Shown in pieces: positions 36-4,539 of a DNA stretch of 4,816 bases. The notes under the pieces were generated by a model. It worked only from the letters and a program-made list of their open reading frames with translations, did not search any database and was not told the origin of the DNA. Made by a program: the position numbers and the translations under genes. Source of the stretch: a virus (Duplodnaviria; Heunggongvirae; Uroviricota; Caudoviricetes); the IMG/VR virus record IMGVR_UViG_2713896737_000023; one strand, written 5' to 3'. How positions within the stretch are numbered: the stretch's first letter is position 1; every line of letters starts with the position of its first letter.

Positions 36-260
36 TGTTCATTCCACGGACAAAAACAGAGAAAGGAAACGACAGAGGCCAAAAAGCCCGTTTTCAGCAC
101 CTGTCGTTTCCTTTCTTTTCAGGGGGTGTTTTAAATAAAAACATTAGGTTACGGCGAAGAAGAACGGAAACGCCTTAAACCGGAAAATTTTCATAAATAG
201 TGAAAAACCGCGAGGTCGCCGCCCCGTAACCTGTCGGATCGCCGGAAAGGACCCGCAAAA
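36..260. other. cos: Lambda-type cos region: cosB with Nu1-binding R-like repeats (GGAAACGACAG at 65-75, inverted copy CTGTCGTTTCC at 101-111, CGGAAACG at 165-172), cosN cohesive sequence 213-224, cosQ-like AGGACCC at 248-254
   Basis: Positions 213-224 are AGGTCGCCGCCC, the exact reverse complement of the lambda 12-nt cohesive end GGGCGGCGACCT. Flanking sequence on both sides closely matches the lambda left end (cosB, Nu1 start) and right end (CGTAACCTGTCGGATC) as recalled. R-element and cosQ positions are assigned by analogy and are approximate. Confidence 0.8.
213..224. other. cosN: cosN 12-nt cohesive-end sequence (terminase nicking site)
   Basis: Exact 12-mer AGGTCGCCGCCC (reverse complement of lambda GGGCGGCGACCT), seen directly in the sequence. 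Confidence 0.8.
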
Positions 261-275
261 TGATAATAATTATCA
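261..275. promoter_or_regulatory. Perfect 7-1-7 palindrome TGATAAT-A-ATTATCA matching the Fur-box consensus (candidate Fur operator; could instead be a packaging-related element beside cosQ)
   Basis: Seen directly: a 15-bp perfect inverted repeat identical to the 7-1-7 Fur-box core (TGATAATnATTATCA). It lies about 10 bp from the cosQ-like motif and about 150 bp upstream of the ylcI-like ORF. From memory, lambda carries a near-identical palindrome at the equivalent position. Confidence 0.35.
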
Positions 276-423
276 TCTACATGTCACAACGTGCATCTAC
301 GCCATCAAACCACGTCAAATAATCAATTATGACGCAGGTATCGTATTAATTGATCCGCATCAACTTAACGTAAAAACAACTTCAGACAATACAAATCAGC
401 GACACTGAATACGGGGCAACCTC

Positions 424-618
424 ATGTCAACGAAGAACAGAACCCGCAGAACAACAACCCGCAACATCCGCTTTCCTAACCAAATGATTGAACAAATTAA
501 CATCGCTCTTGATCAAAAAGGGTCCGGAAATTTCTCAGCCTGGGTCATTGAAGCCTGCCGTCGGAGGCTAACGTCAGAAAAGAGAGCATATACATCAATT
601 AAAAGTGATGAAGAATGA
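424..618 (+). CDS. ylcI: YlcI-like small ribbon-helix-helix-type protein (64 aa, DUF3950-like), cos-proximal accessory gene
   Basis: 64-aa ORF with a basic N-terminal tail (STKNRTRRTTTR) followed by a beta-strand/helix/helix pattern (RNIRFP, NQMIEQINIAL, NFSAWVIEACRRRL) typical of RHH DNA-binding proteins. Length and position match ylcI of the K-12 DLP12 prophage, whose gene order (rzpD, borD, ybcV, ybcW, ylcI, nohD) this window mirrors. The symbol is assigned from synteny and length, not from a sequence alignment. Confidence 0.6.
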   Translation: MSTKNRTRRTTTRNIRFPNQMIEQINIALDQKGSGNFSAWVIEACRRRLTSEKRAYTSIKSDEE

Positions 619-782
619 ACATCCCGCGTTCTTCCCTCCGAACAGGACGATATTGTAAATTCACTTAATTACGAGGGCATTGCAGTAATTGAGTTGCAGT
701 TTTACCACTTTCCTGACAGTGACAGACTGCGTGTTGGCTCTGTCACAGGTTAAGTAGTTTGAATGATTAGCAGTTATGGTGA

Positions 783-2302: not shown

Positions 2303-2763
2303 TATCTGCACTGCTCATTAATATACTTCTGGGTTCCTTCCAGTTGTTTTTGCATAGTGATCAGCCTCTCTCTGAGGGTGAAATAATCCCGTTCAGCGGT
2401 GTCTGCCAGTCGGGGGGAGGCTGCATTATCCACGCCGGAGGCGGTGGTGGCTTCACGCACTGACTGACAGACTGCTTTGATGTGCAACCGACGACGACCA
2501 GCGGCAACATCATCATGCAGAGCATCATTTTCAGCTTTCGCATCAGCTAACTCCTTCGTGTATTTTGCATCGAGCGCAGCAACATCACGCTGACGCATCT
2601 GCATGTCAGTAATTGCCACGTTCGCCAGCTTCAGTTCTCTGGCATTTTTGTCGCGCTGGGCTTTGTAGGTAATGGCGTTATCACGGTAATGATTAACAGC
2701 CCATGACAGGCAGACGATGATGCAGATGAGCAGAGCGGAGATAATCGCGGTTATTCTGCTCAT
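2302..2763 (-). CDS. Rz: Rz i-spanin (inner-membrane spanin subunit)
   Basis: 153-aa product [48 protein letters not shown]..., near-identical to lambda Rz as recalled. It has an N-terminal TMD and a coiled-coil periplasmic domain, and its start overlaps the R stop (ATGA). Confidence 0.92.
2361..2543 (-). CDS. Rz1: Rz1 o-spanin (outer-membrane lipoprotein), embedded in the +1 frame of Rz
   Basis: 60-aa product [24 protein letters not shown]... with a lipobox (VVGC) and a proline-rich mature region (PPPPPAW...PPPDW), near-identical to lambda Rz1 as recalled. Fully nested inside Rz. Confidence 0.85.
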
Positions 2764-3236
2764 ACCTCACTCTCTCTGACCGTTCCGCCAGCTTCTTTGA
2801 ATTTTGCAATCAGGCTGTCAGCCTTATGCTCGAACTGACCATAACCAGCGCCCGGCAGTGAAGCCCAGATATTACTGCAACGGTCGATTGCCTGACGGAT
2901 ATCACCGCGATCAATCATAGGTAAAGCACCACGCTCTTTAATCTGCTGCAATGCCACTGCGTCCTGGCTTTTGGGGGAGAAGTCTTTCAAACCAAGCTGT
3001 TTACGGTAAGCATCCCACCAGCGTGAAAGAAGCTGATAACGTCCGGCGGCTGTTGATTTGAGTTTGGGGTGTAGCGTGACAAGTTTGCGAGGGTGATCGG
3101 AGTAATCAGTAAACAGTTCGCCGCCAACAATAACATCATAACCGTGGTTACGTGTCGGTTGTCGCCCGTTATCCGTTCCTTCTGACCACGCCAACATATC
3201 GAGGAAGGCTTTACGCTGAGGATTAAGATTTTGCAT
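2760..3236 (-). CDS. R: Endolysin R (lambda-type lytic transglycosylase)
   Basis: 158-aa product ...[20 protein letters not shown]...[25 protein letters not shown]... matches lambda R over almost its whole length as recalled, including the catalytic Glu19 in the AWSEGTD context. The N-terminal ~6 residues differ from lambda. The start overlaps the holin 3' end by 14 nt. Confidence 0.92.
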
Positions 3237-3837: not shown

Positions 3838-3866
3838 AATATATGATTTTTAATCCAGTTTTGCAA
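3838..3866 (-). promoter_or_regulatory. Candidate sigma70 late promoter (pR'-like): -35 TTGCAA (3866-3861), 17-bp spacer, -10 TATATT (3843-3838)
   Basis: Minus strand reads ...gaTATTGCAAaactggattaaaaatcaTATATTttatgtaaatctgatatttt.... The -35 overlaps the Q-like stop codon, as in lambdoid pR' arrangements. A -10-like GATATT/TATTTT in the initial transcribed region could act as a sigma-dependent pause element. Motif-based only. Confidence 0.4.
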
Positions 3867-4539
3867 TATCTTGCTGTGAAAATGTGGTCTTTTGTTTTGA
3901 ACGTGTTTTCGTTAAAAGCAATAAAGCTTGGCTATCAAGCTGTAGAAAAATGTGTTTCATTGCAACCCAGCGTTCAGTAAATGTCTCAGACCAGTTTTTT
4001 GATGTCACTCCCACCAGTGATGCCAGCTCCTGGTATTCATAGGTCTTACGCCCTGCCAGCTCGTTCTTCACATCCTGTGCCGCCAGCCAGATCAACTTCT
4101 TCAAACGTTCCAGTGTCTTACCTGCAATTTTCCTGGTACCCAACAGAGTCTTAAACTCGCTCCATGCCCACTGCGTTATGGTGACCTGATGTTCCCAGCG
4201 AACACTTTCGCTGTAACTCCACAGCAACCACGCTTTCTGATGTTCTTCGAGAGACAGAACCGCGCGGCGCCATGACGAGGTTGAGAACTCAACCTGGCTG
4301 ACCAGTGCAATGGATGAACCTTTTGCGTACGACTGCTTACCGGAAATCGGCGGATTATCCAGCGTAATCATCCTGCCAGTTACCTCATCCAGAATGCGCG
4401 GCTTCTTTCGTTTGTATGTACCAGTATCAAATTGTGCATGCTCCAGCCAGGCTTCAAGCTGTCCTTTCGTTGCTCCGCTCAAATCAGCGGTAGCCACAAT
4501 GAGTTGCTCGCGGACATACTGTAAATATTGGGTATTCAT
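3850..4539 (-). CDS. Putative late-gene antiterminator Q (229 aa, non-lambda type, no cysteines)
   Basis: 229-aa ORF with an AGGAG Shine-Dalgarno 7 nt upstream. It is directly upstream of a promoter, tandem terminators and the lysis cassette, which is the canonical Q position. It has no similarity to lambda Q as recalled and lacks any Cys, so it is not a zinc-finger Q-lambda type. Assignment is by synteny. Confidence 0.55.
   Translation of the reverse strand: MNTQYLQYVREQLIVATADLSGATKGQLEAWLEHAQFDTGTYKRKKPRILDEVTGRMITLDNPPISGKQSYAKGSSIALVSQVEFSTSSWRRAVLSLEEHQKAWLLWSYSESVRWEHQVTITQWAWSEFKTLLGTRKIAGKTLERLKKLIWLAAQDVKNELAGRKTYEYQELASLVGVTSKNWSETFTERWVAMKHIFLQLDSQALLLLTKTRSKQKTTFSQQDIAKLD

Follow-up and report, generated by a model that had tools for sequence, protein, structure and literature searches.

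Why should an apparent operator of the iron-responsive regulator Fur lie directly at the edge of the cohesive-end site (cos) of a lambda-type phage? The question is raised by a stretch of 4,816 nucleotides from a virus of the class Caudoviricetes (IMG/VR record IMGVR_UViG_2713896737_000023; hereafter the window is this whole stretch), in which the palindrome TGATAATAATTATCA (hereafter the box) occupies positions 261-275, next to the subsites cosQ and cosN. An earlier note, made from the sequence, had described the palindrome as Fur-box-like and had offered two roles for it, either iron control of the cos-proximal accessory genes (the ylcI-like gene and possibly bor) or a site for terminase or a host factor. 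It had also supposed that the element was not characterised as a Fur site. This supposition was mistaken. The palindrome is already known as a Fur site, being the same element as the published sites of nohB in the prophage DLP12 and of nohA in the prophage Qin. As a Fur site it has been known since 1994; its conserved association with cosQ across lambda-type phages was not found stated in the searchable literature.

The match of the palindrome to the Fur consensus is complete. All 14 positions of the 7-1-7 consensus TGATAATNATTATCA are matched at 261-275, and no other site in the window reaches this level. The complementary arms reach even 8-1-8 (ATGATAAT at 260-267 and ATTATCAT at 269-276), and the classical 19-bp Fur box GATAATGATAATCATTATC is matched at 16 of its 19 positions. 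From the base composition, 4.6e-5 exact copies of the 15-mer would be expected per window. When up to two mismatches were allowed, the mean number of matches over 200 dinucleotide-preserving shuffles was 0.03, and two matches occurred in none of them. Since 0.31 perfect 7-1-7 inverted repeats would be expected per window if any sequence is accepted (one was found, that at 261-275), what is improbable is the identity with the Fur consensus and not the palindromy. The earlier note was thus right about the perfect 7-1-7 repeat, about its Fur-type core and about the low probability that such a core arises by chance.

Other identities of the element were considered and rejected. A chance palindrome is ruled out, with about 5e-5 exact copies expected and with the box kept in 18 of the cos contexts described below. 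The best matches to the IHF consensus WATCAANNNNTTR near the box (271-283 on the plus strand and 256-268 on the minus strand) carry two mismatches each. For an FNR site, the TGAT and ATCA half-sites are 7 bp apart and not 4. A hairpin of RNA or DNA, with a 7-bp A/T stem and a 1-nt loop, cannot form, as judged from the sequence.

The identity with the published sites was established from coordinates. Chen 2007 (PMC2189734) gives the nohB Fur cluster as the third entry in its table of strong predicted clusters, with 25.3 bits, 4 sites in 28 bp and the coordinate 579824, and gives nohA 22.3 bits with the coordinates 1634624 and 1634630, that is, two sites 6 bp apart. A nohA oligonucleotide was gel-shifted by 150 nM Fur in the same study. 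By the account given in Chen 2007, where both sources are cited, nohB was a locus of the Fur titration assay (FURTA) in 1994, and nohA was originally selected in vivo (Vassinova and Kozyrev 2000). Both genes are homologues of Nu1 in cryptic prophages of K-12: nohA belongs to Qin, and nohB, now called nohD, to DLP12. The DLP12 palindrome, centred at 580601 in NC_000913.3, is identical to that of the window. The Qin palindrome TGATAATGATTATCA, centred at 1636600 in the same record, is identical to that of lambda (48452-48466) and has a central G, not A. With an IS5 length of 1199 bp, a version shift of 777 (1976 minus this length) puts 579824 exactly on the DLP12 centre. The shift of 1976 itself, obtained from the nohA gene coordinates of Chen 2007, puts 1634624 exactly on the Qin centre. 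Each of the two boxes is the sole strong Fur-type match in its 5-kb surroundings.

Compared with the nohB site of DLP12, the window has the same 15-mer at the same position relative to cosQ, cosN, ylcI and nohD, with 3 differences over window positions 200-330; nothing of substance differs, the window being an O157:H7-type prophage copy and not the K-12 one. The nohA site of Qin shares the arms, the homologous position and the two overlapping sites 6 bp apart, but differs in its centre (G instead of A), in 9 substitutions within the surrounding ~70 bp and in weaker leftward promoter hexamers. The gel shift in Chen 2007 was on the Qin/lambda variant, and the exact variant of the window, that of DLP12, is the one with 25.3 bits there. 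The literature has shown Fur binding to the sequence, by an in vitro shift of the Qin/lambda variant and by titration in cells, and homologous boxes are occupied in two strains as described below. We have little doubt that the palindrome is a true Fur operator.

Occupancy in cells was analyzed with the Fur peaks from chromatin immunoprecipitation with exonuclease treatment (ChIP-exo) in the supplements of Gao 2023 (PMC10164565), which were mapped here onto homologous cos-adjacent boxes. In strain CFT073, the iron-replete peak P53 (1424699-1424711) overlaps the box GAGAATAATTATC, which lies 5 bp after the cosQ of a prophage and beyond which the sequence is unrelated to lambda. In strain Sakai, the iron-replete peak P90 (2918933-2918945 in NC_002695.1) is found in the Stx1 prophage Sp15, with Rz on one side and the gene of the small terminase subunit on the other; the Sp15 box, TGATAATGGTTATCA, is centred at 2919064 in NC_002695.2. 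The offset between the two record versions was calibrated on three classical Fur sites (ydiE, +127; cirA, +124 to +138; mntH, +144), and after this calibration P90 is at most 13 bp from the centre of the Sp15 box. A zero offset, with which an 11/14 match at the start of stx1A would fit the peak P91, is ruled out by the same three sites. In MG1655, an anti-FNR ChIP-seq summit at 1634625 (NC_000913.2; Myers 2013) is 1 bp from the centre of the Qin palindrome, and Myers 2013 grouped this summit with nine classical Fur-repressed targets. It is odd in itself that FNR should give a signal at strong Fur sites, and the box is not FNR-like. For this type of box, the findings on occupancy in cells are mixed, with the peaks in CFT073 and Sp15 and with FURTA and in vivo selection for nohB and nohA on the one side and no called peak in three strains on the other.

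In the literature, cos consists of cosQ, cosN and cosB; cosQ is a highly conserved 7-bp site, cosB has the architecture R3, I1, R2, and packaging termination requires cosQ, cosN and I2 only (PMC4669245). In the window, 6 bp separate cosQ from the palindrome, which lies on the far side of cosQ from cosN and cosB. It starts 36 bp past the mature DNA end (the right end) and ends 149 bp before the ATG of the ylcI-like gene, in agreement with the distances of about 35 and 150 bp in the earlier note. Window positions 225-700 align to lambda 48502-48027, so that window position x corresponds to lambda 48727-x; on this scale cosQ falls at 48473-48479, which we take to be its place in lambda numbering.

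A survey of cos contexts was anchored on the conserved left half of cosN plus cosQ (CCGCCCCGTAAC-N13-GGAAAGGACCC). One-genome-per-species contigs and IMG/VR gave 145 instances, and clustering on the sequence 30-130 bp beyond cosQ resulted in 28 distinct flank contexts. Beginning 4-7 bp after cosQ, a match of at least 11/14 to the 7-1-7 consensus was found in 18 of the 28 contexts, and one of at least 12/14 in 14. Among background windows of 20 positions at the same loci, the corresponding frequencies were 0.3% and 0.07%. The lambda, phi80-like and N15-like contexts are all among the 18 carriers: lambda has TGATAATGATTATCA, with the central G given in the earlier note, the 15-mer of phi80 is identical to that of the window, and in N15 its place is taken by CGATAATAGTTATCG. 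The conservation across phages supposed in that note is thereby confirmed. The phi80 record (L152, 485-539) labels a 55-bp stretch that takes in the box as 'cosQ; aka R4 region', and in N15 (L151, 415-429) the stop codon of the late-direction gene gp59 lies inside the box.

The neighbours of the box vary. A ylcI homologue is present within 3 kb in only 2 of the 18 box-carrying contexts, the box directly follows a late-direction gene in Sp15, N15, phi80 and one further context (L030), and the Nu1 homologues of the carriers show 37% to 100% identity. The first two of these facts indicate that the box is tied to cosQ-cosN and not to ylcI, and an operator specific to ylcI is largely ruled out by this gene-neighbourhood survey. 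In Sp15 (L147, 1600-1680) the cosN region has diverged (cgcgcccgcccgccccgtgttcagg...), but AGGACCC-GCAAAA-TGATAATGGTTATCA-TTTGCAAC has been kept, so that cosQ and the box have stayed together as a unit despite the change in cosN.

The anchor was also found in unexpected hosts. The lambda cosN-cosQ core occurs in contigs of Oceanobacillus, Neobacillus, Shewanella, Leeuwenhoekiella, Raphidiopsis and Archangium, in an Alicyclobacillus 'plasmid' and in several metagenome-assembled genomes (L007, L008, L013, L014, L017, L020-L023). Coverage is ~1-5x where the contig name gives it, and several of the matches are at contig ends. These matches are almost certainly lambda spike-in or vector contamination.

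The substitutions among the 18 lineages are those expected for constraint by Fur, with fixed arms, a free centre and a second register. GATAAT and TTATCA (positions 1-6 and 9-14) are conserved in 15-18 of the 18 lineages. The centre base is free (G in 11, A in 7), the outer T is relaxed, and the spacer to cosQ varies from 4 to 7 bp. Conservation across the 18 lineages extends beyond the core to AAA (-3 to -1) and T-T-R-C-A (+16 to +20); the latter motif fits a second Fur register 6 bp away, as Chen 2007 gives for nohA.

This pattern bears on the reading that Fur binds to a site without a selected phage function, an AT-rich palindrome having simply been inherited along with the cos module. Such a reading would account for a regulatory output that is inconsistent across strains, for the 10 of 28 contexts without a box and for the three strains without a called peak. 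It does not account for a core that has stayed fixed while divergence affected the cosQ spacer, the central base and all of the sequence from ~7 bp outside the core onward. The flanks differ completely among the 18 contexts, and the variable positions are those that Fur tolerates. We therefore consider it very unlikely that the box is without function.

The box is not obligatory for packaging by a lambda-type terminase. In 10 of the 28 contexts it is missing next to an identical cosQ and left half of cosN, and three of these (L052, L053 and L054) have a Nu1 that is ~99% identical to NohD. The palindrome is, in short, not one of the defined cos subsites: it lies outside them, cosQ ending at 254, and it is not always present where a cognate terminase and cosQ-cosN occur. 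In one box-less context (L034 and 11 related loci, 12 in all), the slot of the box, 0-35 bp after cosQ, is taken by A8-GCCGGATTTCTCCGGC. The late-direction strand of this stretch reads GCCGGAGAAATCCGGC and then T8, which is a canonical intrinsic terminator directed at cosQ. The terminator suggests that the slot just outside cosQ serves to hold back unscheduled transcription that would enter cos and the terminase genes.

These contexts also bear on the reading that the box is a part of cos function, that is, that Fur or a phage protein binds the same sequence 6 bp outside cosQ and acts on DNA. A protein bound there might make the incoming terminase motor pause, or give it a mark, shortly before it reaches cosQ as packaging ends; alternatively, it might protect or organise the right end of the DNA, the first part to enter the cell. 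The geometry would suit such a role, since the motor meets the box immediately before cosQ, and the spacing to cosQ is tight (4-7 bp) in the 18 contexts whatever the neighbouring genes and the type of Nu1. The box is kept in Sp15 although cosN has diverged there, and the phi80 label spans it. In addition, the minimal cos inserts of the Feiss laboratory (lambda 48446-182; XbaI 48442) include the box, so that its dispensability is outside what those constructs tested. On the other side stand the box-less contexts with an identical cosQ, including those with the ~99% identical Nu1, and a spacing that varies by 3 bp, or ~100 degrees of helical phase. Mutants in fur are not known to be other than ordinary hosts for lambda. 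The literature confines cosQ to 7 bp and termination to cosQ, cosN and I2 (PMC4669245), and no paper linking a Fur box and cos was found in the searchable literature, which leaves out most subscription journals. Taking these facts together, we regard a part in cos function as unlikely. The suggestion of a terminase or host-factor site in the earlier note is weakened accordingly by the 10 box-less contexts.

Two elements of cos are instructive for comparison. The packaging-termination signal of lambda, cosQ/R4, is on the same right-end side of cosN as the box, 6 bp away, and is co-conserved with it in 18 of the 28 contexts; it is required for termination, whereas the box lies outside it, has no reported packaging phenotype and is missing in 10 contexts with an intact cosQ. 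The IHF site I1 in cosB is a precedent for a host DNA-binding protein site built into lambda cos. It differs in its place, across cosN from the box and flanked by R3 and R2, and in having a proven role in terminase assembly, and the palindrome fits the IHF consensus only with 2 mismatches. There is a low probability, in our estimation, that Fur at cosQ is an unrecognised host-factor part of the lambda-type cos, as a brake or marker of the motor, as a protector or organiser of the right end, or as a sponge for Fur once the DNA has been amplified.

The expression of the genes flanking the box was examined in the published delta-fur RNA-seq data of Gao 2023 (PMC10164565). In CFT073 delta-fur, expression of the terminase operon increases by +1.3 to +2.1 log2. 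The unit that lies beyond the box as seen from cos (C_RS07340 and C_RS26755) increases by +2.3 and +2.9 log2, or 5-8 fold. In Sp15, the genes on the terminase side (ECs2961-2963) rise by +1.05 to +1.57 log2. The CFT073 prophage (L004) carries a 106-aa open reading frame (ORF) at 645-965 on the minus strand, which begins 31 bp from the Fur-bound box and may correspond to the old locus C_RS07340 (+2.33 log2 in delta-fur). Within this ORF, ~100 bp from the box, is an ATG from which a signal peptide is predicted to start. A gene for a TonB-family protein is located ~1 kb from cos (1-281) in the same prophage.

The box could then be the iron-responsive operator of cos-proximal accessory genes transcribed away from cos, such as the ylcI-like gene and perhaps ybcV and bor. 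The non-cos-side unit of CFT073 is the most strongly derepressed among the genes listed, and the ORF with the signal peptide starts within ~100 bp of the box. Moreover, ylcI, ybcW and ybcV change together with ynfO and ydfO in W3110 delta-fur, ybcVW and nohB rise together after DNase-toxin stress, and Fur-controlled stx1 (peak P91) is a precedent in lambdoid phages. As a general explanation, this reading is opposed by the presence of a ylcI homologue in only 2 of the 18 box lineages and by the boxes of L030, Sp15, N15 and phi80, which follow a late-direction gene and have no outward-facing gene. A consensus scan of bases 1-1200 gave no promoter-like site on the plus strand, and the ATG of ylcI is 149 bp away. 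In delta-fur, MG1655 shows no change, and the change in W3110 is a decrease. An operator of this kind is, in our judgment, quite unlikely. The iron control of the ylcI-like gene and bor proposed in the earlier note thus does not hold as a general role; a weaker form of it stands in CFT073.

In the other direction, the same consensus scan gave a sigma-70-like promoter on the minus strand at 260-287 as its best match (10/12), directed toward Nu1 across cosQ and cosN, with its -10 hexamer inside the box. Because of this promoter match, the placement of the box and the delta-fur rises in CFT073 and Sp15, we favour a Fur-damped promoter region. Dimers of Fe2+-Fur would occupy the perfect 7-1-7 core together with one or more overlapping registers at a distance of 6 bp. 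As an operator, the box would be a conserved accessory of the lambda-type cos, placed as near to the terminase operon as is possible without overlapping cosQ, cosN and cosB. When iron is replete, bound Fur would most likely damp weak sigma-70 transcription that starts in or beside the AT-rich box in the prophage. One direction of this transcription would be leftward in the window, across cos into Nu1/A, from the putative -10 hexamer that lies inside the box in this lineage. In some prophages, transcription might also proceed outward into the adjacent accessory gene. Taken as a whole, a Fur-damped promoter region bordering cos, of low strength and perhaps active in both directions, is in our view the probable explanation, although by no means a secure one; we infer the promoter, the direction of control and the benefit to the phage. 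A conserved rightward promoter with T-T-R-C-A as its -35 was rejected, as there is no consistent -10 across the lineages.

Several facts weigh against a Fur-damped promoter region. The ChIP-exo data have no called peak at the perfect boxes in DLP12 and Qin of MG1655, in W3110 or in lambda-DE3 of BL21(DE3), where one would be expected near 768432. In K-12, the missing peaks are not explained by multi-mapping of reads, as the surroundings of the box distinguish DLP12 from Qin at 9 positions. Such multi-mapping is still plausible for the O157 copies; the sequence of the window is present in 6-13 copies per O157 genome and is therefore probably unmappable there. The published distances do not agree in one case: the table of Chen 2007 lists nohB at -133, and we measured -233 from the current start of nohD. 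As for the promoter, a minus-strand consensus match with its -10 in the box is found in only 6 of the 18 lineages, in three different registers, and no consistently placed promoter is present across the 18 lineages. The hexamers of lambda and Qin, GTGATA and TATCAC, are weaker than those of the window.

The expression data also contain points against it. In Sp15 delta-fur, ECs2976 near Q rises by +1.05 as well, a match for the rise on the box side, so that extra spontaneous induction in delta-fur, rather than local derepression, could explain the latter. In MG1655 delta-fur, there was no change in nohD, nohA, ybcV, ybcW and ydfO, of which nohD, nohA, ybcW and ydfO are nearly silent. In W3110 delta-fur, genes on both sides of both boxes fall (ybcV, ybcW, ylcI, nohD, ynfO and ydfO). 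In the same data (Gao 2023, Dataset 3), appY also falls in W3110 delta-fur (-4.1 log2), whereas none of these genes changes in MG1655. The regulatory output of the box is thus mixed across strains.

The number of copies of the box offers a further reading, in which at least 100 replicating phage copies soak up Fur and derepress the iron regulon of the host and, in Stx1 phages, stx1. The nohB site was discovered by just such a titration of Fur, from a multicopy plasmid in FURTA. The region of bases 1-700 is present in 4620 of 5426 complete E. coli genomes (median, 2 places per genome; maximum, 14), and in many copies in O157 strains; pathogenic E. coli may carry the box as many as 14 times in one genome. 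The fixed position beside cosQ and the single cluster per genome are left unexplained by titration, which is pure inference, and we consider it highly improbable as the reason for the box.

The closest known counterpart in gene control is the Fur box of the stx1 promoter in Stx1-converting lambdoid phages. The stx1 box gives clear iron regulation. Like the cos-adjacent box, it is a Fur operator on a lambdoid prophage, and the Sakai data that gave P90 also include a peak on it (P91), both boxes being in Sp15. It differs in that it lies in a defined promoter directly upstream of the toxin gene, whereas the cos-adjacent box has no defined promoter or target. If Fur control into the terminase operon, or an effect of Fur on packaging, is true, the behaviour of prophages, including Stx phages, would be tied to host iron by a second route besides the stx1 promoter. 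If Fur at cosQ is instead a host factor of cos or a sponge, iron status would be linked to DNA packaging or to the host iron regulon. In either case, a top-ranked predicted E. coli Fur site adjoins cosQ in lambda, phi80, N15, Sp15 and about two-thirds of the lambda-type cos contexts, whatever the neighbouring genes, and this tie between the box and cos is an under-appreciated puzzle.

The remaining features of the window are summarised together with the box and cos in Table 1. The ORFs and Pfam matches show that the window is the late region of a lambdoid prophage in reverse orientation. Bases 1-700 are 100% identical to prophages in many O157:H7 genomes, where the annotation reads ylcI and nohD, and the same region shows ~97% identity to phage lambda.

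Table 1. Coordinates of the box, of the cos subsites and of the genes in the window.
Feature	Position	Strand	Basis and remarks
Nu1/NohD-type small terminase gene, 5' end	1-35 (ATG 35-33)	minus	Sequence, MEVNKKQLADIF...; annotated nohD or terminase subunit Nu1 in identical or near-identical records
cosB core, 26-nt inverted repeat I1	60-85 and 91-116		85% complementary; contains AGAAAGGAAACG R-type repeats; assignment of individual R sites putative
cosN cohesive-end 12-mer AGGTCGCCGCCC	213-224		Reverse complement of lambda bases 1-12; end of lambda record = window 225
cosQ, AGGACCC (reverse complement of GGGTCCT)	248-254		Sequence and coordinate mapping to lambda
Extended Fur site array	255-281		A-run 258-260; overlapping 7-1-7 registers -6 (255-269, 9/14) and +6 (267-281, 9/14); 19-bp match 256-274
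Sigma-70-like promoter toward Nu1 across cosQ/cosN (putative)	260-287	minus	-35 GTGACA 287-282, 16-bp spacer, -10 TATCAT 265-260 inside box; consensus match only
Core Fur operator, perfect 7-1-7 palindrome TGATAATAATTATCA	261-275 (lambda 48466-48452)	none	Identical to DLP12 nohB Fur site
ylcI-like gene	424-618	plus	ORF; Pfam DUF3950, E = 5e-20; neighbour of box, outside conserved unit
DUF1398 YbcV-like protein		plus	ORFs and Pfam
YbcW		minus	ORFs and Pfam
Bor	1977-2270	plus	ORFs and Pfam
Rz with embedded Rz1		minus	ORFs and Pfam
Lysozyme	2760-3236	minus	ORFs and Pfam
Holin		minus	ORFs and Pfam
Antiterminator Q	3850-4539	minus	ORFs and Pfam

Two minor observations concern these neighbouring genes. 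A 60-aa ORF on the minus strand (2361-2543), out of frame inside Rz, has a lipoprotein-type signal; it is the Rz1/RzoD outer-membrane spanin and is ordinary for a lysis cassette. A 13-nt inverted repeat, ATCAATTATGACG at 322-334 and CGTATTAATTGAT at 342-354 (85% complementary), occurs in lambda as well; in the window it is 70-100 bp upstream of the ylcI-like gene. From its sequence and position, this repeat would be a candidate operator or promoter element for ylcI.

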